Virus record (IMG/VR): IMGVR_UViG_2540341091_000008
Source: a virus
Lineage: Duplodnaviria; Heunggongvirae; Uroviricota; Caudoviricetes
DNA length: 31,086 nt
Reading direction: 5' to 3' (one strand)
Part shown: positions 1-25,938 of the stretch, one piece after another
Layout: each line of letters starts with the position of its first letter
Numbering within the stretch: position 1 is the first letter of the stretch
Notes under the pieces: model-generated
What the model was told of the DNA's origin: nothing
The model's input: the letters and a program-made list of their open reading frames with translations, nothing else
Databases searched by the model: none
Translations under genes and position numbers: made by a program

Positions 1-1284
1 TTACAGACTTCTGGAAGGTTGCGCAGCTCTTACAACACGCGGTTGATCTTCCGCAGCGTCTTCCAGCGCACTTAAATCACGGTCTTTCACCTCTGGCATT
101 TTCAGCGCAGAGATTAAACCAATTACTGAATATGCCATGATCATAATGGCGATCGGATACCAGGATTCCGTCATGGTGCAGAAAATACCCGCCAGGATAG
201 GACCAAAACCGGAAGCGATAAGACCACCAATTTCTTTAGAAATAGCCATCCGGGTAAAGCGGTTTTTACAGCCGAACATTTCTGCCATGGTAATGTTTTC
301 CAGAGCAAATAATCCCAGCACCGCACAGTTATGAATCACAATCAGTGCAACCATAATGGTGCTCGGGGCATAGCTTTTATCTACAATGATAGAAAGCATT
401 GGCCATGCCAGCACAATCGCGGAGGTATTCATAATAATATACGGGATCCGGCGACCAATTTTATCGGATAACCAACCAAGGAACGGAATGGTCATAAAGC
501 CGAGAATCGAACTAATCATCAATGCATCTGTTGGAATTGCTTTGTTAAACAATAACGTCTGCACTAAATAGCCTGCAAGGAAAGTCTGAATTAACCCGGA
601 GTTACCCGCCTGACCAAAACGCAGCCCTGTTGCCAGCCAGAAGGATTTGCTCTGGAACATGCTACCAGCAGGTGCAGGTTTTGCTGTGGGTTGGTTGCTG
701 TCATTAACCTTCTCAAAGACCGGGCTTTCTTTCAGATTCATACGTAACCAGATAGCAAAGACCATCACGACAACGCTCGCCAGGAACGGTATACGCCATC
801 CCCACGCCAGCAGTTCCTCTTTACTGAGAATGAAGAACATAAAGGCCCAGATTGCCGTTGCGCTCAAGGTTCCGCAGTTAGTTCCCATAGCTACAAATGA
901 GGAGATAATTCCGCGCTTACCTTTTGGTGCATATTCCGCCAGCATCGTACCGGCACCGGAAATTTCCGCACCTGCACCCAACCCCTGAATAATACGCAGC
1001 GTCACCAGCAAGATGGGGGCAAAAACACCAATCTGTGCATAGGTCGGTAACACACCAATTAAGGTGGTACAGATCCCCATCATGGTGATGGTAATAAAGA
1101 GCACTTTTTTACGCCCTATTCTGTCGCCCATTTTGCCGAAAATAAATGCTCCGACAATACGCGCCACATAACCTGCACCGTAGGTTCCCATTGCCAAAAT
1201 TAACGCCATTGCCGTTGATGATTCAGGAAAAAATATTTCATGAAACACTAACGCTGCGCCGAGCGAATATAACTGGAAATCCAT
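1..1284 (-). CDS. ydfJ: MFS (metabolite:H+ symporter type) transporter, 427 aa; its 5' end abuts the prophage
   Basis: Long hydrophobic ORF with MFS signature (GKMGDRIGRKK loop, 12-TM pattern). The conserved N-terminal motif sits at the very first residues and there is no SD before the ATG, consistent with a 5' end displaced by prophage insertion. Confidence 0.85.
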   Translation of the reverse strand: MDFQLYSLGAALVFHEIFFPESSTAMALILAMGTYGAGYVARIVGAFIFGKMGDRIGRKKVLFITITMMGICTTLIGVLPTYAQIGVFAPILLVTLRIIQGLGAGAEISGAGTMLAEYAPKGKRGIISSFVAMGTNCGTLSATAIWAFMFFILSKEELLAWGWRIPFLASVVVMVFAIWLRMNLKESPVFEKVNDSNQPTAKPAPAGSMFQSKSFWLATGLRFGQAGNSGLIQTFLAGYLVQTLLFNKAIPTDALMISSILGFMTIPFLGWLSDKIGRRIPYIIMNTSAIVLAWPMLSIIVDKSYAPSTIMVALIVIHNCAVLGLFALENITMAEMFGCKNRFTRMAISKEIGGLIASGFGPILAGIFCTMTESWYPIAIMIMAYSVIGLISALKMPEVKDRDLSALEDAAEDQPRVVRAAQPSRSL

Positions 1285-14922: not shown

Positions 14923-14981
14923 TTGATTTTATTAGTAACAAGTATTTTTTATATTTTAATAATATATTTAAAGCAGATAAT

Positions 14982-15006
14982 AAAAAACCCGCCTGAGCGG
15001 GTTTGA
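14982..15006. terminator. bidirectional rho-independent terminator
   Basis: AAAAAACCCGCCTGAGCGGGTTT: GC stem flanked by an A-run and a T-run; between convergent genes. Confidence 0.6.
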
Positions 15007-15285
15007 GATTGTGGTGCTTTTTGTGGGAGTCATCCACTTACGCACTTTGTTTTGCCATGCCAGCAGTTAGCTTCTGCTGTAAAACTATTCATGCAGCAAA
15101 CCTGCACTTCACCACAATGGTTAGCATACTTTTCCTGATTAAGATTTTGCCAAATATGCTGGCCATTGTTTCATGTATTGGACCTCCTTAATTTTTATTA
15201 AAGAAATCCAATATTCACTACTCTGTCCGTATCTCTACTCAGGCATCAGCCTTCTTCGTTATCGTATACAGACGAGCGATGAATT

Positions 15286-15501
15286 TTAATCAGTAATGAT
15301 GACATTTGCTGCTGCAGGACCTTTAGCACCACTCTCTATAGAGAAGGTAACCTTTTGACCTTCAAATAAGGTTCGATAATTATCATTCTGAATCGCAGAA
15401 AAATGCACAAACACATCTTTACTACCATCAACAGGAGAAATAAAGCCGAAACCTTTATCAGCGTTAAACCATTTTACTAAACCAGTCATTTTATTTGACA
15501 T
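15286..15501 (-). CDS. cspB: cold shock protein CspB, 71 aa
   Basis: Cold-shock domain; matches CspB as recalled. Confidence 0.95.
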
Positions 15502-15801
15502 TCTACATTCCTTAACTTGAGCCTTTCGGCATAAATGGTTTGCATAACAGAAACGACTTCGTACTTAATTGGAGAGACTCAAAGAAGGAATAAGTGAATA
15601 ACACCTGAAATGAGAACTGCTTTAGTAAACTACTTCGTATATCGTCTGTTCTTCAAACCGACGCAATCATTAACGCATAGTTGAACATATGAAGCAATGT
15701 TTATTTTAGACATCCAGCCATCTTCAACCCCATCAAAAAACTATAGCTTTCTTCAGGAACGTGTGTATAGTGCGCCAAGTTATCAGTATTAAGGAATTTT
15801 T

Positions 15802-16014
15802 TTGTCCCGTAAAATGACAGGAATTGTCAAAACCTTTGACGGCAAAAGCGGCAAGGGTCTTATCACCCCATCCGATGGTCGTATCGATGTCCAGCTTCAT
15901 GTTTCAGCGCTCAATCTCCGCGATGCAGAAGAAATTACCACCGGATTACGCGTGGAATTTTGCCGGATAAATGGTCTGCGTGGCCCTTCAGCTGCCAATG
16001 TTTACCTTTCATGA
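15802..16014 (+). CDS. cspF: cold shock protein CspF-like, 70 aa
   Basis: Cold-shock-domain fold; TTG start 8 nt after AAGGA (alternative ATG at 15814). Confidence 0.85.
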
Positions 16015-16067
16015 GCTATATTAAAGCTTTAATTTCAGGCCCCATCGGATCACACATGGAGAGTTTT

Positions 16068-16157
16068 TATGAATAACCCCGTCTGTCTTGATGACTGGTT
16101 GATTGGCTTTAAAAGCTTATGCTGTACTTTGGCCGTAATAGCTCTGCTAATAATATA
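16068..16157 (+). CDS. hypothetical small hydrophobic protein, 29 aa ([29 protein letters not shown])
   Basis: ATG preceded by GGAGAG at good spacing; one TM-like segment. Confidence 0.25.
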
Positions 16158-16306
16158 ATAAGCAGACTCATTGTGTTTAGGGACATTGTACTGGAAGAAA
16201 ACATTTTAAACATCAGGCAAATAACCAAGTCACCAGCTAAATAATAAGTTAACAGACATGAGTCCCGGGATGAGATTCAACATTACCATTGCCCCATTTA
16301 AAGCAC

Positions 16307-16330
16307 AAAACCCGCTCATCAGCGGGTTTT
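16307..16330. terminator. bidirectional rho-independent terminator; candidate tR'-like terminator for the late promoter
   Basis: AAAACCCGCT-CATC-AGCGGGTTTT perfect 10-bp stem with a U-tract on both strands. Confidence 0.65.
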
Positions 16331-16375
16331 CTACTTTTTCTTAACGTCGGGTATACAAAGCCCATCGTTGAAAAA

Positions 16376-16404
16376 ATTTTATCCATATTTTTTGAAAAAT
16401 GCAA
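16376..16404 (-). promoter_or_regulatory. candidate late promoter (pR'-like) downstream of the Q gene
   Basis: Minus strand: TTGCAT, 17-bp spacer, TAAAAT, about 30 bp past the Q stop and about 45 bp before the terminator hairpin. Confidence 0.5.
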
Positions 16405-16435
16405 ACATCATGTCGCCATCTTCAGCAAAAATCAT

Positions 16436-17188
16436 TTATCTCGTCACCTTCCTCAATTGCGCTTCCGCGTATGCTTCTTCCTGCCAGCACTTTGTTACCA
16501 GTTTACCAATGACGTCCGCATACCCCTTATACCACTGATAATCGGTCAGGTCTGGTACCAGCTTCTGGACATGACGTCGTGCCAGCGTGGTCGGTAAACG
16601 ACTAAACCGGTTTCCATTACAACGCCCACAAATCTTATATACCGGTACGCCATGAAACCGGGTTCTTTTTTCATCCAGAACAATCCCTTTACCCTTACAC
16701 CCTCTGCACGCTGTGCTGGCTTCGCCCTTACCATGGCAATGCTGACATAGTTCCTTCACCCATTCTTCCTTGATTACAGATTCCCCGCGTCTGTAGTGTT
16801 TCACCACTTCGCGCAATACATTATAAAATCCCGTACCTGAACAATGCTCACAGCGAGCTTTACTTGCCGCAGACCTGGAGTAATCAGCAAAGGCAAAACT
16901 CACGAGGTAAGGAATAATCTGTAACCGGATTTCTTCACTCAATTTGTTCAATGTCGGGTTATCCAGTGCCATCGCGTAATTTAGCAGGCCTTCAATCGCA
17001 AACTGAGGGTCCTGAACACCAACTTTTGCCAGAAATAAGGCCAACCCAAGTGGTGCTTTCGACTGCACCATCCCCTGCGCTGCCATTACATCCGTAATTG
17101 TTAAACAACCGGTGCCTGTCGCTGGAGCGTCATCGCTCAATTTTGGAGATTTTGGGGAGTAATATTTTGGTAAGGCTTCAAGGTTCAT
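16436..17188 (-). CDS. quuQ: late-gene antiterminator Q, 250 aa
   Basis: Cys-rich zinc-binding region (CEHCSGTG...CQHCHGKG...CRGCKGKG); internal ATG with GGAGAA SD; sits upstream of the lysis cassette. Confidence 0.85.
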   Translation of the reverse strand: MNLEALPKYYSPKSPKLSDDAPATGTGCLTITDVMAAQGMVQSKAPLGLALFLAKVGVQDPQFAIEGLLNYAMALDNPTLNKLSEEIRLQIIPYLVSFAFADYSRSAASKARCEHCSGTGFYNVLREVVKHYRRGESVIKEEWVKELCQHCHGKGEASTACRGCKGKGIVLDEKRTRFHGVPVYKICGRCNGNRFSRLPTTLARRHVQKLVPDLTDYQWYKGYADVIGKLVTKCWQEEAYAEAQLRKVTR

Positions 17189-17201
17189 GCTCGTTCTCCA
17201 C

Positions 17202-18251
17202 TTACGCCAGTACGCCAATTGCCAGCGCGCGATCGATAAAACGAAATATCAGCTCCAGTTGGGAGCCATACTTCTCTTCAAATGCCACTGTATCCGTATG
17301 CAGCTTGTTGTGATGCTTTCTGCACAAAGGCAACACAAAGAGATCATGTGCTTTTGTTCCCATTCCGCCCTGCCCGTGACCAATCAGATGATGCGGATCG
17401 TCGGCTGGCATACCGCAGCAAGCACACGGCTGTGTCTTAACCCAACGTGTGTATTTCTCCTTAACCCAGCGGCGACGTTTAGGCAGCTTCATGAAAGATT
17501 CCGGAGACTCTGGATCAACGGTGATGCTTACCACCGTCTTTTCCTGTGGTAGTTTTTGTTGCTGGTGGGCGTAAGGCAACGGTGCAAGATTTTTTGTGCG
17601 TTGTTTCAATATGCTGGTGGCGGTCTGCTCTCCCGGTACGATGTCGCTTTCGCGGTACACCGAGCAGATTTTTTCCGCTGGTAATCCCAGCGAACGACGC
17701 GATACAGCCTCAGGTAGTGCATCCACCACCTGATTGCAGACCGCCCACCAGGATAATTCAGCCAAAGATAATTCCCGCTCCTGCGTACCGCTTATTGCGT
17801 GACGGATGACGTCAATCACCCATGCTGTCAGATTTTGTTGAGCAAGCAGCTCCAGTGATTCCGATGTCTGGTCACGCAGTTGGTTGTCGCAGTGCCAACA
17901 CAACACCATTGCGCCGGTACCATAACGGTGAATGACTGTTTCAGTGTGATGGTAATCGCCATTAGGCCACTGGCAGGATGTAACATGACGTAATAGCCAG
18001 TCAGACAATGAGCCAACGCCGCCAGCAGCACGAATCACCCGTGCGTTACTGAAAAACGGCAGCAATGTTTTGTCTTCCACCAGCGGCTGGCGAGCGGCAG
18101 GAACGACCCCGGACGGCAGATTACGCATGCTTTTCGGTTCCGGCTCCACCAGTAACCGGGTATTGTGGAATACCGGCATGGATTCACGGCCCGGCTTAAC
18201 GATCACCAGCCCGAGTTCCGGTACCAGAACAGGTCGAAGTAATACCCGCAC
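17202..18251 (-). CDS. ydfU: DUF968-family prophage protein with C-terminal HNH-like motif, 349 aa
   Basis: Matches YdfU as recalled; C-terminal CxxC...HH...HNKLH motif. Confidence 0.8.
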   Translation of the reverse strand: MRVLLRPVLVPELGLVIVKPGRESMPVFHNTRLLVEPEPKSMRNLPSGVVPAARQPLVEDKTLLPFFSNARVIRAAGGVGSLSDWLLRHVTSCQWPNGDYHHTETVIHRYGTGAMVLCWHCDNQLRDQTSESLELLAQQNLTAWVIDVIRHAISGTQERELSLAELSWWAVCNQVVDALPEAVSRRSLGLPAEKICSVYRESDIVPGEQTATSILKQRTKNLAPLPYAHQQQKLPQEKTVVSITVDPESPESFMKLPKRRRWVKEKYTRWVKTQPCACCGMPADDPHHLIGHGQGGMGTKAHDLFVLPLCRKHHNKLHTDTVAFEEKYGSQLELIFRFIDRALAIGVLA

Positions 18252-18252
18252 G

Positions 18253-18531
18253 TTACCTCCAGATGCGTTGCTGGAATGTGTGGGACGGACGCGGTGGACG
18301 TTCGGAGTAAGGCAATCTGACTGAGATTATCCAGTGACGGTAGTCGAGGCTAAGGGCTTTTTTAACCTCGTATCCGCGCCTGCGGTAACACTGAATTATC
18401 CATTCAGCCTGCTCTTCAGTGCATGGTGGATGCTGGAACCAGTCCGATTTGAATGCATGAAAACGCCGTCCGCACCTGCTGGCAAAGACGGCAGAATCAT
18501 CAGAATTGTGTAATTTGGTATCGTGCGCCAT
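18253..18531 (-). CDS. rem: Rem-like small prophage protein
   Basis: MAHDTKLHNSDDSAVFASRCGRRFHAFK...; start uncertain (ORF-track start is a TTG at 18642). Confidence 0.6.
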   Translation of the reverse strand: MAHDTKLHNSDDSAVFASRCGRRFHAFKSDWFQHPPCTEEQAEWIIQCYRRRGYEVKKALSLDYRHWIISVRLPYSERPPRPSHTFQQRIWR

Positions 18532-18900
18532 CGGTTGTCTCTGCTGGCGCAGCAGGTGCCAGTTGTTCAGGCTGGCGTATAAAGTATAAATAAACTGGTT
18601 CCAGTGTAAAGCCCCTACATTAATGGAATAAAAGTCAAACAACAGATTGTTGGGATAAACACAACGCTTATTATTAAAAGCGATTAGATAAATTAAATTT
18701 TAATGTTATGCAATTTTACCAGATCACCATAACATCTCGTTTGAAACCACCGAAACAACAACCATATCAATATTGATTATGTTAAAGTGAGTAAATATGG
18801 AAAACAACAAATCTGCACATTACGCTCCTTCTTTATCTGTGATACTTTTTGTTTTATGCTGTGTGTGGGCATTATTTTTATAAAAATATTTACAGATAAA

Positions 18901-18925
18901 ATAAACCCGCCGAAGCGGGTTAAGT
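18901..18925 (-). terminator. rho-independent terminator downstream of hok
   Basis: Minus strand CCCGCTTCGGCGGG followed by TTTATTTTA; a second hairpin GGCGAGGGAGAAATCCCTCGCC directly follows the hok stop. Confidence 0.6.
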
Positions 18926-18989
18926 GCGGGTGCATTGAGGATGCCTGACACATCAGAGGTGGCGAGGGATTTCTCCCTCGCCAAGTCTC

Positions 18990-19145
18990 TTACTCCTCAG
19001 GTTCGTAGACTGTGAAGACAGCGACCTCCGTCTGGCCGGTTCGGATTCGTACCTCGCAGAGGTCTTTCCTCGTTACCAGTGCCGTCACTATGACGGTTAA
19101 ACAGATGACGATCAGGGCGATTAACATCGCCTTTTGCTGCTTCAT
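18990..19145 (-). CDS. hokD: Hok-family type I toxin (HokD/RelF type), 51 aa
   Basis: MKQQKAMLIALIVICLTVIVTALVTRKDLCEVRIRTGQTEVAVFTVYEPEE; one TM plus conserved C-terminus. Confidence 0.9.
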   Translation of the reverse strand: MKQQKAMLIALIVICLTVIVTALVTRKDLCEVRIRTGQTEVAVFTVYEPEE

Positions 19146-19356
19146 AGCCTGCTTCTCCTTGCCTTTTGGCACGTAAGAGGCTAACCTAGATTTGCCGTTC
19201 ATAGATTGAGCCTCAGATTAATGTTAAGCGTCTTGCAGGACGCGTAATGTTAACTGGGGCTTTTCTCTATCTGCCTTTGGTGTTCATGCCTGAGACAGAT
19301 AGCCTCAAGCACCCGCAGCCATTCTACTTAACTCCCGTCACCTGGCCAATATAAAA

Positions 19357-19446
19357 TCAATCAGAAAGGCGATCCATAAGAACAACAGCAAGACAATAAA
19401 TTGCCATTACAGCTGCAATAGCCAGCGCACATTTGAGAACCAGCAC
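19357..19446 (-). CDS. hypothetical small hydrophobic protein, 29 aa (MLVLKCALAIAAVMAIYCLAVVLMDRLSD)
   Basis: GTG start 5 nt after a perfect AGGAGG; single TM; located where relE/relB would be expected upstream of hokD. Confidence 0.3.
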   Translation of the reverse strand: MLVLKCALAIAAVMAIYCLAVVLMDRLSD

Positions 19447-19731
19447 GACAACCTCCTGTATTGGACGTACACCAGTCCTGATAAATATGAGGCTCTCTCA
19501 TCATTGATGAGATACAACTATTGGGTATAGTTTCTGTGATTTTGTTCTGTAGAAATGGAACACAACAACCAGTAACCACCAGCGATTCTTTAAATACGCC
19601 AAATCCGACGCAAGCTAACCTTCTAGTCCGCTTTGGGCGAAGACCGGACGTTCGATAGGTGTGAACTAGTAACTTTAAAAACATTTAATTACCAGTAAAA
19701 AAACAAGAATATACTATCACTTTTCCAATTT

Positions 19732-20757
19732 TTAATTACCCTTATCAATTTTAAGAAATACATTTCCAATCTCATCAGAATAATCCTGTATTATTTTTGA
19801 AATGACGGCATGATCAATGGTTGGTTTTAAGAATAAAAGTGTCACAGTAATCTGCATCAAACTAATAGCAGTAGCATGGGCTGGATCAGCCATTCCTGAA
19901 TCACTTTGCCCGACCAATAATATATCATCACCAGTTTCACAGAGACCAAGCCTATTTCTCATTGCCTTGGAACCGGTGTGTACATTCTGACTCGCCCACT
20001 TATAATAAGGGCGCATGTGTTCTAACTGAACATCTTTCTCAATAGCTCCAAACCCCACTTTATTATGGTTAGGGAAAATATAAGATGCCCACCCATAATT
20101 ATCTGCATATTTTTTGCCGTATTTTTTTATTAATAGATCAAATTGAACTTTACACTCAGCTATTTCTTCAATAGTTGGACCTTTTGCTTCTAACCGGTGC
20201 TCGTACTTTTTGTGTTCCAACATTCCAGTATATGAATCAACCACTTCATGGTAGTAAAAGCGCTCAGCACACTCTTTTCCATGCTTTGCTATAAACATAG
20301 CTGTGGCTGCTACCTCATGAAGTGCTCGCCATCTCGCTTGGGCAGCATCTGCAAATCCATTCTTTAAGAGACACAAAATTTCGTTGGCGATGTGGCAAGC
20401 TCTTGCGTGATGCCGAACGACTAAATCAAAAACCACATCCTCTTCAGAGGCAGCTTGTGGTCTATAAGAACGATTGAACTCTTCACCGGACTCCGTGCAT
20501 ATCACTATAAGTGTTTCGAGCAAATCAAAAGCCTCTGCCCATCTTGAAATATTTCTCTCAACAAATTCATCACAAAGAGAACGATGTTCTCTAAGCATTG
20601 CATTGGCCGAGCCAATAAGAGATTTTTTAACGACAATGGCTATTTTGGGAATTAGGTTATTAATTTCTTTTTCGATATCAGCGTCACCAGATAAATCAAG
20701 TCTCTCTTTTAAAAGGCTGTCTATGTGCTCAAGCAAAATATTATGAAAAGTATCCAT
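19732..20757 (-). CDS. hypothetical protein, 341 aa (345 from the upstream TTG), AT-rich moron; candidate accessory or defence gene
   Basis: Long clean ORF in a markedly AT-rich island flanked by AT-rich intergenic DNA; no family recognised by eye; contains RWRALH (Rx4H). Confidence 0.7.
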   Translation of the reverse strand: MDTFHNILLEHIDSLLKERLDLSGDADIEKEINNLIPKIAIVVKKSLIGSANAMLREHRSLCDEFVERNISRWAEAFDLLETLIVICTESGEEFNRSYRPQAASEEDVVFDLVVRHHARACHIANEILCLLKNGFADAAQARWRALHEVAATAMFIAKHGKECAERFYYHEVVDSYTGMLEHKKYEHRLEAKGPTIEEIAECKVQFDLLIKKYGKKYADNYGWASYIFPNHNKVGFGAIEKDVQLEHMRPYYKWASQNVHTGSKAMRNRLGLCETGDDILLVGQSDSGMADPAHATAISLMQITVTLLFLKPTIDHAVISKIIQDYSDEIGNVFLKIDKGN

Positions 20758-20862
20758 ATCATATCTCAATAAGTTTTAAATCCATGTGGCACACCCATAA
20801 TATAAAAATAAACAGCATGCCAGTCTAAGTCTGGCTATTTGTATATCATATCACCTGAAACA

Positions 20863-20984: not shown

Positions 20985-21367
20985 CTAGTAACGTCTAAAA
21001 TACCTAACATTTCCCTGATAAAATGCCATAATGCGCTGCATAACTTCGCTCTTCCGGCACTCGCGACAGATTATGTTTAGACAACTATCGTAGCGACGTA
21101 TTTCTCCGTCAGGTAATGACCAGATAAGGTCCGGATCAACCGCAGATGGTTTTTTCAGCTTTGCCCTTGAGAGCTTTTTACGGGCATTTTGCCAGTCCTT
21201 ACGCGCCTGTTCAGACGGGAATAACCCGTAACCAGAGTTGTATACATCGCCACTGGCAACCAGCTCTCTGGCCAGAACGCTCATCAGATATCTTGTTGCC
21301 CCAGTTTTAGTTTCCAGTTGTCGTAACGTCTCGCGCCCACTCTGGCGTACGAGTTCAACAACCTGCC
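20985..21367 (-). pseudogene. 3' part of a roughly 140-aa HTH-like gene split by IS2
   Basis: Frame continues across the IS2 and target duplication from the 5' part at 22699..22746; reconstructed N-terminus MAKVFTQEEREKIKGQVVELVRQSGRETLRQLETKTG... Confidence 0.6.
21363..21367. repeat. IS2 target-site duplication (CTGCC), right copy
   Basis: Identical 5-mer immediately flanks both IS2 ends. Confidence 0.85.
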
Positions 21368-21378
21368 TGGATTTGCCC

Positions 21379-22284
21379 CTATATTTCCAGACATCTGTTA
21401 TCACTTAACCCATTACAAGCCCGCTGCCGCAGATATTCCCGTGGCGAGCGATAACCCAGCGCACTATGCGGATGCCATTCGTTATAATGCTCGAACGCCT
21501 CTGCAAGGTTCTTTGCTGCCGTTAACCCGTCTGGTTTGGGCATGATACTGATGTAGTCACGCTTTATCGTTTTCACGAAGCTCTCTGCTATTCCGTTACT
21601 CTCCGGACTCCGCACCGCCGTGTTCTTCGGTTCAAGTCCCAACATCCGGGCGAACTGGCGTGTTTCATTAGCCCGGTAGCATGAACCATTATCCGTCAGC
21701 CACTCCACTGGAGACGACGGAAGATCGTTGCCGAAGCGGCGTTCCACCGCTCCCAGCATGACGTCCTGTACTGTTTCACTGTTGAAGCCGCCGGTAGTGA
21801 CCGCCCAGTGCAGTGCCTCACGATCACAGCAGTCCAGCGCGAACGTGACACGCAGTCTCTCTCCGTTATCACAGCAGAACTCGAACCCGTCAGAGCACCA
21901 TCGCTGATTGCTTTCTTTCACGGCCACTCTGCCTGTATGTGCCCGTTTCGATGGCGGTACAGCAGGTTTTCGCTCAAGCAACAGCGCATTCTGGCGCATG
22001 ATCCGGTAAACACGTTTGGCATTGATCGCAGGCATACCATCAAGTTCTGCCTGTCTGCGAAGCAGCGCCCATACCCGACGATAACCATACGTGGGCAGCT
22101 CTCCGATAACATGGTGTATACGGAGAAGCACATCCGTATCATCAGTGTGACGACTGCGGCGGCCATCCATCCAGTCATCGGTTCGTCTGAGAATGACGTG
22201 CAACTGCGCACGCGACACCCGGAGACAACGGCTGACTAAGCTTACTCCCCATCCCCGGGCAATAAGGGCGCGTGCGCTATCCAC
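21379..22284 (-). CDS. insD: IS2 transposase OrfB (InsD), 301 aa
   Basis: Matches InsD as recalled; DDE integrase-like core. Confidence 0.95.
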
Positions 22285-22607
22285 TTTTTTGCCCGTCCAT
22301 ATTCAACGGCTTCTTTGAGGAGTTCATTTTCCATCGTTTTCTTGCCGAGCAGGCGCTGGAGTTCTTTAATCTGCTTCATGGCGGCAGCAAGTTCAGAGGC
22401 AGGAACAACCTGTTCTCCGGCGGCGACAGCAGTAAGACTTCCTTCCTGGTATTGCTTACGCCAGAGAAATAACTGGCTGGCTGCTACACCATGTTGCCGG
22501 GCAACGAGGGAGACCGTCATCCCCGGTTCAAAGCTCTGCTGAACAATTGCGATCTTTTCCTGTGTGGTACGCCGTCTGCGTTTCTCCGGCCCTAAGACAT
22601 CAATCAT
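22242..22607 (-). CDS. insC: IS2 OrfA (InsC), 121 aa
   Basis: [26 protein letters not shown]...; overlaps insD as expected for frameshift-produced OrfAB. Confidence 0.95.
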
Positions 22608-25218: not shown

Positions 25219-25404
25219 TCCTTCTTTTCATACCAACTCACCCCGCTCCACAGAATGCAGGGCAATACTTCGAGTTACCAGGCAGTGGTCAGGGGTTAAG
25301 TAGCCAGCCCGAGGCGTAAGAACATGACGGCAGGGTACAACTTTAATAACTATGCAGCAGGTTTTTGTTCCGCTACCCCGGCGTTAAGGGGAAATGAGGT
25401 CAGC

Positions 25405-25560
25405 ATGGATACTATCGATCTTGGCAACAGTGAATCTCTGGTATGTGGCGTGTTCCCCAACCAGGACGGTACGTTCACCGCAATGACGTATACCAAAAGC
25501 AAAACGTTTAAAACCGAATCTGGAGCGCGTCGCTGGCTGGAAAGAAATTCAGGTGGGTGA
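25405..25560 (+). CDS. ydfA: YdfA-like small protein, 51 aa
   Basis: Internal ATG with GAGG SD; size and operon position match ydfA. Confidence 0.7.
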   Translation: MDTIDLGNSESLVCGVFPNQDGTFTAMTYTKSKTFKTESGARRWLERNSGG

Positions 25561-25561
25561 T

Positions 25562-25690
25562 ATGGATTTCGACACAATCATGGAAAAGGCTTACGAAGAA
25601 TACTTCGAAGGCCTTGCCGAAGGCGAAGAAGCTCACAGCTTCAACGAATTTAAACAGGCGCTTTCCAGTTCGGCAAAATCTAATGGCTGA
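25562..25690 (+). CDS. ydfB: YdfB-like small acidic protein, 42 aa
   Basis: ATG overlapping the ydfA stop with GGTGGG upstream; below ORF-track cutoff. Confidence 0.65.
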   Translation: MDFDTIMEKAYEEYFEGLAEGEEAHSFNEFKQALSSSAKSNG

Positions 25691-25719
25691 TAAGCGAAAC
25701 AGCACCGCGAGGAATCAGT

Positions 25720-25938
25720 ATGCAGAAACGAGAACCCGTCATCATCGCGCCAGACTATACCAATGATGAACTTTATGAGTGGATGCGCCAGAAAATTAAT
25801 GCAGCGCAGGATCTGAAATGGGCTAATGAAGTCAGGGCTAAGCAGGCTGAAAATCTGTCCTCTCTGGAGCAGGATATCACCAATCTGGAAAAAGCAGCGG
25901 CATTAACCATTGCCAGAATGATTACATACCCGCGTTAA
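25720..25938 (+). CDS. ydfC: YdfC-like protein, 72 aa
   Basis: AGGAA SD; size and position match ydfC. Confidence 0.7.
   Translation: MQKREPVIIAPDYTNDELYEWMRQKINAAQDLKWANEVRAKQAENLSSLEQDITNLEKAAALTIARMITYPR

Follow-up and report, generated by a model that had tools for sequence, protein, structure and literature searches.

How is the toxin gene hok kept silent in a prophage that lacks the relBE genes, and does a short hydrophobic open reading frame (ORF) upstream of it encode a second membrane toxin? Both questions are raised by a locus in a 31,086-nucleotide (nt) stretch of DNA (IMG/VR record IMGVR_UViG_2540341091_000008; the whole stretch is referred to as the window), which represents a Qin-like lambdoid prophage of a non-K-12 Escherichia coli. 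They had been posed in an earlier note on this DNA, which took the K-12 arrangement relB-relE-hokD as its point of reference. Our analysis makes it likely that the region consists of two adjacent, separable modules of the prophage, namely an intact hok/mok/sok unit and a gene for a membrane peptide of 29 codons. The hok part is already known and ordinary, and the small ORF is a credible, widespread and uncharacterised small-protein gene.

The hok/mok/sok unit

In line with the earlier note, hok was found to be intact. Its product of 51 amino acids (aa) matches PF01848 (E 6.4e-22; 77 bits, cut-off 22) and PHROG 251, 'MokW-like host killing' (E 8e-32), as well as the NCBIfam Hok subfamily at E 1.3e-11, which lies under the curated cut-off of that model, and PGAP names the identical sequence hokD. 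The start codon is the ATG at 19145..19143, a small correction to the earlier position. Likewise, relB and relE are indeed missing, as a tblastn search with the K-12 proteins RelB and RelE returned no match at E <= 1 across the whole 31-kb window. In the alignment with K-12, the match to hokD breaks off approximately 18 nt upstream of the hok ATG, where relE adjoins in K-12.

The note had left open how hok is silenced, overlooking the leader of its mRNA and the elements that go with it. The Rfam family RF01794 'sok' matches over its full length (model positions 1-157; 109.3 bits, gathering threshold 59; E 2.5e-25) and covers the hok mRNA leader from the 5′-end GGGUGCUUGAGG to the hok start. 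The 5′-end of the mRNA is predicted at position 19314, and the -10 hexamer of the hok promoter lies 7 nt upstream of position 1 of the Rfam model. When the hok mRNA of 418 nt was folded (-173.1 kcal/mol, z -7.5; none of 100 shuffles as stable), nucleotides 1-12 paired with the fbi element, which is located directly upstream of the terminator, in both the minimum free energy and the centroid structure. As modelled, this pairing of 5′- and 3′-ends represents the fold-back between tac and fbi that is typical of hok mRNAs.

As had been noted, hok is preceded by exactly 19 further codons in the same frame; they begin with an ATG at 19202 and yield an ORF of 70 aa with GAGG 8 nt upstream of its start. 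The phages Rac-SA53 and Min27 contain the same coding sequence (CDS) of 213 nt, with the stop codon common to hok, and there it is annotated as mok or mokW. Moreover, residues 1-70 of this frame are conserved at the protein level (91-94% in other Escherichia species, 67-69% in Photorhabdus). On the plus strand, antisense to the Rfam-matched leader, we predict the Sok RNA, whose region 19194..19268 folds with -31.5 kcal/mol (z -5.3) and whose 5′-tail covers the mok start codon (19202..19200). Because the leader and Sok elements could be identified and the predicted Sok tail covers this start codon, the extension of 19 codons reads as mok.

Homology among 62 relatives from GTDB genomes is confined to approximately 19330..18903, no insertion sequence (IS) element or rearrangement was found inside the unit, and the unit is matched in 4964 of 5426 E. 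coli genomes. The alignment with hok/sok and relBEF loci, which the note had proposed, gave 92.6% identity to the hokW-sokW locus and a K-12 hokD that is truncated at its 5′-side. Judged by its sequence, the stretch from approximately 18897 to 19349 (-) is a complete, ordinary hok/mok/sok type I toxin-antitoxin unit. Since the unit is intact and homologous to the characterised hokW-sokW, silencing of hok follows the well-known, already described mechanism and presents no puzzle here.

According to this mechanism, a weak promoter would give rise to a hok mRNA of approximately 415 nt, the 5′-end of which is predicted to pair with the 3′-terminal fbi element, and the full-length RNA would stay closed. 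By analogy with R1, slow trimming from the 3′-end would open the mRNA. Translation of Hok would be coupled to translation of the overlapping mok frame, and the abundant, short-lived Sok, transcribed over the mok start on the plus strand, would block mok translation and target the duplex for RNase III, as deduced from R1 and hokW-sokW. Upon loss of Sok, Hok would enter the inner membrane and the cell would be depolarised or lysed. If the early-right transcript runs with the hok strand, as in other lambdoid phages, read-through during induction would be sense to hok and run head-on into the Sok promoter. By extension, such head-on read-through could be the cause of the unexplained loss of sokW upon prophage induction.

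The 29-codon frame upstream of hok

The 29-aa ORF with a single transmembrane (TM) stretch, preceded by AGGAGG 5 nt before a GTG, is present as described. It starts with the GTG at 19446, begins 212 nt upstream of hok and encodes a peptide with one hydrophobic stretch (A7-M24) and a charged C-terminus. Together with its Shine-Dalgarno (SD) sequence, it is found at a coverage of at least 80% in 1895 of 5426 complete E. coli genomes (~35%), almost always without annotation. An 841-nt region of the window is 100% identical to several chromosomes, for example that of avian pathogenic E. coli (APEC) O78:H4 E19057, and in these identical chromosomes PGAP calls only hokD and a DUF5677 protein there. 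One variant of the ORF has been annotated by PGAP in a few genomes as a hypothetical protein (WP_000960667.1).

Is this frame a gene? We regard it as unlikely that it stays open merely by chance, within conserved linker or regulatory DNA that precedes the hok promoter, but several results would fit such an origin. Besides the missing annotation in nearly all RefSeq genomes, the peptide belongs to no family: at E <= 10 it gave no match in Pfam, NCBIfam or PHROG, bar a PHROG of unknown function at E 0.74. A phmmer search with the 31-residue in-frame translation against 1.84 billion representatives returned only copies with 86-97% identity, located inside longer gene calls, and no relatives beyond these. 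A full-text search of the literature for the peptide sequence yielded no papers, and the peptide was not found in the supplements of a ribosome profiling (Ribo-seq) study of small genes in O157 Sakai. The ORF is also dispensable, as it is truncated by a QueH gene in some prophages and absent from the prophage Sp5.

The pattern of variation within the ORF argues against a chance frame. A degenerate DNA pattern over eight codons retrieved more than 120 loci from IMG/VR, all of which proved to be the 29-aa ORF; the eight codons fixed by the pattern were left out of the tests based on synonymous change and on a dN/dS-like ratio (nonsynonymous over synonymous). The ORF occurs as 31 distinct DNA variants in 126 places, and 30 of the 31 are intact, one having the stop codon changed to a cysteine codon, with no insertions or deletions (indels). 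This intactness alone is weak evidence, as the sampled mutations would be expected to create a stop codon only 0.16 times. In contrast, 24 of the 50 distinct changes are synonymous, compared with 15.8 +/- 2.6 expected when base changes are placed at random (P = 0.0024), and over the unconstrained codons the dN/dS-like ratio is 0.43 in the frame of the ORF and near 1 in the other two (1.06 and 1.34). Variation is skewed across codon positions (9:5:17 in one set of variants, 16:10:26 in the other). In addition, the ORF is less variable than both flanks, with 0.40 alleles per site as compared with 1.0 in the 46 nt upstream, a 2.5-fold difference.

The signals for translation point in the same direction. 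The GTG and a purine-rich SD sequence (GGAGG, GGAGA or GGGGG) are kept in 42 of 42 distinct variants, while the spacer between them varies. A divergent homologue of 34 aa, MSDDILLAMEGALAVVAVMAIYCLVVFLIDRRGG, is encoded at the same position in the relative L169, just upstream of the hok promoter; there, a similar peptide is specified by DNA with only 78% identity and with an ATG and an AAGGAGG of its own. A second degenerate pattern designed for divergent homologues retrieved L169 alone.

A conserved promoter is found at the right distance as well. TTGAAT, TTGAAG or TTGATT, followed by 17 nt and CATATT, is present in 115 of 132 places; the -35 hexamer begins 66 nt upstream of the GTG, a position shared by the other scanned variants. 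The spacers belong to three families that are unrelated in sequence, but they always measure 17 nt. Fixed hexamers and fixed spacing around a free spacer are, in a comparison of sequences, the signature of a functional promoter. Transcription is predicted to start near 19476 and to produce a 5′-untranslated region (5′-UTR) of approximately 30 nt that starts with the hairpin GGACUGGUGUACGUCC. Thus, most copies of the small ORF would be expressed from their own sigma-70 promoter by way of a short 5′-UTR, a strong SD sequence and a GTG. Taken together, the comparative evidence leads us to conclude that the ORF is probably genuine and encodes a membrane peptide with a single pass. With a promoter of its own, a presence in about one third of complete E. 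coli genomes and signs of purifying selection, it is a candidate for small-protein studies.

The near-palindrome reported upstream of the ORF is real, but it is a minority allele of this promoter region and not a conserved element. It comprises 17 nt (TCTCATCA-T-TGATGAGA, 19496..19512) and lies 50 nt upstream of the GTG. TCTCAT stands in place of TTGAAT in 13 of 132 places, the window among them, and since this hexamer is confined to the one lineage whose spacer begins with CAATGATGAGA, the palindrome is best read as a derived allele that removes the -35 consensus and not as a conserved operator. The change of TGA to CTC, three adjacent substitutions, converts an imperfect inverted repeat into a perfect 8+8 palindrome and looks like a quasi-palindrome templated mutation. 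The palindrome is not exceptional by chance alone, because it is one of six perfect 8-bp inverted repeats with a loop of at most 3 nt in the window, as compared with approximately 2.1 in shuffled sequences. A role as operator or terminator was rejected on the grounds that it is not conserved, is AT-rich and is not followed by a U tract. The TCTCAT variant is a natural promoter-down allele, which can be used as a control.

Since the -35 hexamer has been lost in the window (TTGAAT to TCTCAT), expression of its small ORF probably depends for the most part on phage transcripts that read through from upstream. A terminator scan revealed none between the 29-aa ORF and hok, and the transcript of the small ORF may therefore continue into the hok unit.

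Other interpretations of this stretch were discarded. An overlapping ORF of 107 aa (19361..19684) is interrupted by indels of 1 nt and 14 nt in relatives. A degenerate tandem copy of hok was rejected, as there is no second match to RF01794 and no HOK_GEF match; the likeness of the peptide to a Hok protein of Photorhabdus is that of TM composition only (E ~0.1 in a 1-Mb database). The conserved block that moves with the small ORF has its upstream junction at approximately 19640-19660, next to variable cargo genes. On the minus strand, RNAalifold gave -21.3 for this block versus -9.0 +/- 3.0 for column shuffles; in view of this modest signal and the lack of an Rfam match, we do not consider the block of approximately 200 nt to be a structured RNA. 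The positions of all features are summarised in Table 1.

Table 1. Positions in the window of the features of the hok/mok/sok unit and of the small-ORF module
Feature	Position	Strand	Basis
29-aa single-TM ORF MLVLKCALAIAAVMAIYCLAVVLMDRLSD, GTG start	19357..19446	-	ORF list
SD sequence AGGAGG, 5-nt spacer to GTG	19452..19457	-	sequence
Small-ORF promoter position (consensus TTGAA[T/G]-17-CATATT)	19484..19512	-	family comparison
Conserved non-coding block moving with the small ORF	19447..19650		comparison of relatives
hok promoter TTGGCC-17-TAGAAT	19321..19349	-	promoter scan, sigma-70-like
hok mRNA 5′ leader (tac, Sok target, mok start)	19140..19314	-	Rfam RF01794
mok frame (70 aa; hok plus 19 in-frame codons)	18990..19202	-	ORF list, annotated phage counterparts
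hok toxin CDS (51 aa, HokD/HokW type)	18990..19145	-	ORF list, PF01848, PHROG 251
fbi element CCUCAAUGCACCC	18928..18940	-	pairs with mRNA 5′-end GGGUGCUUGAGG (19314..19303)
hok mRNA intrinsic terminator (AACCCGCTTCGGCGGGTT, then T run)	18904..18921	-	terminator scan and fold
Predicted Sok antisense RNA	19194..19266	+	single-stranded 5′-tail, long hairpin, then GGGGCUUUUCUCU
Predicted Sok promoter TTGCCT-17-TAACCT	19159..19187	+	read from sequence, analogy with R1

Activity of hok and role of the small peptide

Several points weigh against the account given so far. L169 is the single clearly divergent homologue of the peptide, the coding signal comes from approximately 50 point differences between closely related copies in E. 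coli prophages, and the promoter of the small ORF is weak by consensus (8 of 12 matches). On the side of hok, the predicted Sok promoter has 7 of 12 consensus matches and scores under the threshold of the consensus scan. The ends of Sok are predictions, as are the Sok promoter and the transcription start sites of hok and the small ORF. Moreover, chromosomal hok loci have been reported to be incapable of post-segregational killing, and an intact sequence is therefore no proof of activity.

It is distinctly unlikely, though, that the hok/sok unit is intact in sequence and functionally inert, a decaying passenger like the chromosomal hok loci of K-12. The weak consensus of the predicted Sok promoter would be in line with such decay; all structural elements are nevertheless present, with a score well above the Rfam threshold, the unit is free of IS elements and rearrangements, and it is kept in the large majority of E. 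coli genomes, as counted above. Furthermore, hokW-sokW, with its identity of 92.6%, is an active locus that increases the release of phage approximately two-fold (PMC8621323). Here, the presence of the elements and their predicted folding were established, and their activity is assigned by homology: toxicity of Hok and its suppression by Sok are known from hokW-sokW (PMC8621323).

Is the peptide tied to hok? Of 117 informative places, 108 have the hok start downstream of the ORF on the same strand, at a distance of 211-213 nt (192 nt in one). Each of the two also occurs without the other. The ORF is found without hok in ten places, where homology stops at the position equivalent to 19342, beyond which lies a TehB/DUF1971 gene in the opposite orientation, and hok is found without the ORF in many units, including those of Sp5, K-12 and L005-L009. 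In L008, L011 and L072, the cargo gene QueH truncates the ORF to its last ~25 nt, and in L169 mok and hok have been lost to a cytosine-C5 methyltransferase gene. The junction between the modules is located inside the spacer of the hok promoter, the -35 hexamer of which comes from the ORF module and the -10 hexamer from the hok module. Because each is found without the other, the ORF and hok appear from this comparison to be separable, neighbouring mosaic modules that are linked mainly by descent. A remnant of the hok promoter together with the first ~110 nt of the leader persists in L169 (reverse strand, 938..1065).

It is very doubtful in our eyes that the peptide is an inner-membrane factor tied to Hok or to the timing of lysis, be it a modulator of Hok, an immunity peptide or a second membrane-active effector, with a promoter that was switched off in some lineages by quasi-palindrome templated mutation. 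If true, a classic toxin locus would have an uncharacterised partner that is spread over ~35% of E. coli genomes.

The idea of a second membrane toxin, raised by the earlier note, is very improbable as well; the peptide would then be a type I toxin of the TisB, ZorO or DinQ class in size and hydrophobicity, silenced by an unrecognised antisense or divergent small RNA (sRNA). The peptide is small, consists of a single hydrophobic helix with a charged C-terminus and adjoins a known toxin locus in most places, and promoter-like sites exist both antisense at the stop codon (TTAACT-18-TAAAAT, abutting it) and divergently on the plus strand (48 of 66 distinct variants); yet no Pfam, NCBIfam, PHROG or RNA family is matched, just 31 of 66 variants have the site at the stop codon, which is lost in copies without hok, the terminator scan found no terminator on the plus strand, Sok has no significant complementarity to the translation initiation region of the ORF, and the ORF and hok are each found alone. 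In addition, the ~30-nt 5′-UTR, the strong, moderately accessible SD sequence and the conserved constitutive-type promoter contrast with type I toxin mRNAs, whose leaders are long and occlude the SD sequence. A conserved promoter of this type combined with a strong SD sequence fits a tolerated peptide better than a toxin. Our best guess from the sequences is thus that the peptide is a tolerated accessory of the prophage, a moron-type inner-membrane peptide and not a second toxin. Cross-regulation of the small ORF by Sok was rejected as well, the energy of the duplex being within 1-2 standard deviations of that of shuffled sequences.

The divergent plus-strand promoter has the form [G/T]TGAT[T/G]-16-TATAGT (19504..19531) and stands back-to-back with the promoter of the small ORF. 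A possible transcript from it (19538..19650, +) would comprise a conserved block of 110 nt up to a GC-rich hairpin of 9 bp (19627..19650) without a U tract. Judged by its sequence, it could be an unrecognised sRNA; it gave no match in Rfam, and the Pas sRNAs were rejected as candidates here, since they map near Q and the lysis genes.

Further small hydrophobic ORFs were observed near hok units. One of them, at 18797..18883 (+), encodes 28 aa (MENNKSAHYAPSLSVILFVLCCVWALFL) and is convergent with hok just past the hok terminator. Intact copies, with six protein variants, were seen in 26 places, including prophages without hok (for example L107, 6234..6320); the ORF is unannotated and has no PHROG match, and its variation is too small for a coding test. 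Another family of small TM ORFs, of 27 aa (MTWPEAFTTVGIAMAVALVVYSICRWG and MSWPDAFAIVGITMAIAIIVYSICRWL), precedes hok units of other prophages, at approximately 1930..2010 in L005 and L006 and 663..746 in L169 (reverse strand). These ORFs overlap the stop codon of the preceding gene and have GGAGGTGA upstream; at the same position, L009 and L018 carry further small membrane ORFs.

Prophage context and comparison with known loci

The hok unit and the 29-aa ORF are both located on the minus strand, as are the replication genes and the Q gene ydfT. Alignment with K-12 Qin yielded three blocks, 14947..18548 (cspB to ydfU, 97.4%), 18903..19159 (hokD, 97.3%) and 25367..25897 (ydfA onwards), between which the window differs from K-12. 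The K-12 gene rem and its surroundings are absent from 18549..18902, which extends from the neighbour of ydfU to the hok terminator and is unlike K-12 Qin, and a hypothetical protein of 92 aa annotated by PGAP (18253..18531) is found in place of the rem region. In hok itself, the UAC codon for Tyr47 (19004..19007, -) is followed by G, in the context CUACGAA here and UUACGAA in K-12, and residue 46 is V in the window and A in K-12.

Upstream of the small-ORF block, a cargo slot (19732..20769, -) is occupied by a DUF5677 gene in the window. Elsewhere, the same slot contains DUF4145, QueH, an HNH endonuclease with an AAA ATPase, an alpha/beta hydrolase, a Kiwa KwaB-like gene or DUF7167; its equivalents, between the replication module and the small-ORF and hok modules, were seen in L003, L067-L072, L193 and L194. 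This variable slot looks like a moron or defence hotspot. PADLOC gave no match for the neighbouring DUF5677, DUF977 or 129-aa proteins of the window. An inserted IS2 element (IS3 family, programmed frameshift; 21379..22607, -) separates the replisome-organiser gene from the DUF977 gene (20985..21404), the start of which is overlapped by the end of the element.

Compared with known systems, the 29-aa peptide resembles the small type I toxins of E. coli (TisB, 29 aa; ZorO, 29 aa; DinQ, 27 aa; ShoB, 26 aa) in its size, its single hydrophobic helix and its polar or charged ends. It shares no sequence similarity with them, has no identified sRNA partner and, unlike them, combines a short 5′-UTR with a strong, exposed SD sequence and a conserved promoter of the constitutive type.

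For the hok unit, the architecture is that of hok/sok on plasmid R1, with hok, an overlapping mok, an antisense Sok with a single-stranded 5′-tail, tac-fbi pairing and a terminator, a likeness supported by the full-length match to RF01794. The Sok promoter of R1 reads TTGCGC-17-TATCCT. In K-12 mokC/hokC, mok is in frame with hok, and in R1 it is in a different frame; mok of the window is in frame, like that of mokC/hokC and unlike that of R1. The context differs too, being a prophage in the window and a plasmid for R1. Toxins of the HokW type are ~44% identical to R1 Hok (PMC8621323).

The characterised counterpart is hokW-sokW of the Stx2 prophage Sp5 (VT2-Sakai) of E. coli O157:H7, the 92.6% nucleotide identity to which extends over 96% of the 436-nt unit of the window. 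Both have a Hok of 51 aa, a Mok frame of 70 aa and a lambdoid position between the replication and Q modules. The window copy resides in a Qin-type prophage and is preceded by the module of the 29-aa ORF, which Sp5 lacks. For hokW-sokW, it has been demonstrated by experiment that the toxin is neutralised by the sokW RNA with partial dependence on RNase III and Hfq, that RecA-dependent induction of the prophage is followed by the disappearance of sokW and a build-up of HokW in the inner membrane, and that deletion of the locus halves phage release (PMC8621323).

In K-12 Qin, hokD (relF) shares with the window the segment that holds the CDS, fbi and terminator, and the flanking ydfU, ydfT and csp genes are common to both. 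K-12 hokD is without promoter, tac, Sok gene and mok start, all of which the window has, whereas the window is without relB, relE, ydfV, flxA and rem of K-12 Qin. Because the match stops approximately 18 nt upstream of the ATG, the loss of these elements has taken place in K-12. In agreement with this, an inactivation of hokD by genomic rearrangement is on record from Pedersen & Gerdes 1999 (cited in PMC12214031 and PMC7232551). From the alignment, relB-relE-hokD of K-12, which the earlier note had used as its reference layout, is a rearranged, 5′-truncated derivative that keeps only the hok CDS, fbi and the terminator, and not the reference state. The K-12 layout represents the exception; the rule in E. 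coli prophages is an intact locus of the hokD/hokW type that has a Sok of its own (a match in 4964/5426 genomes).

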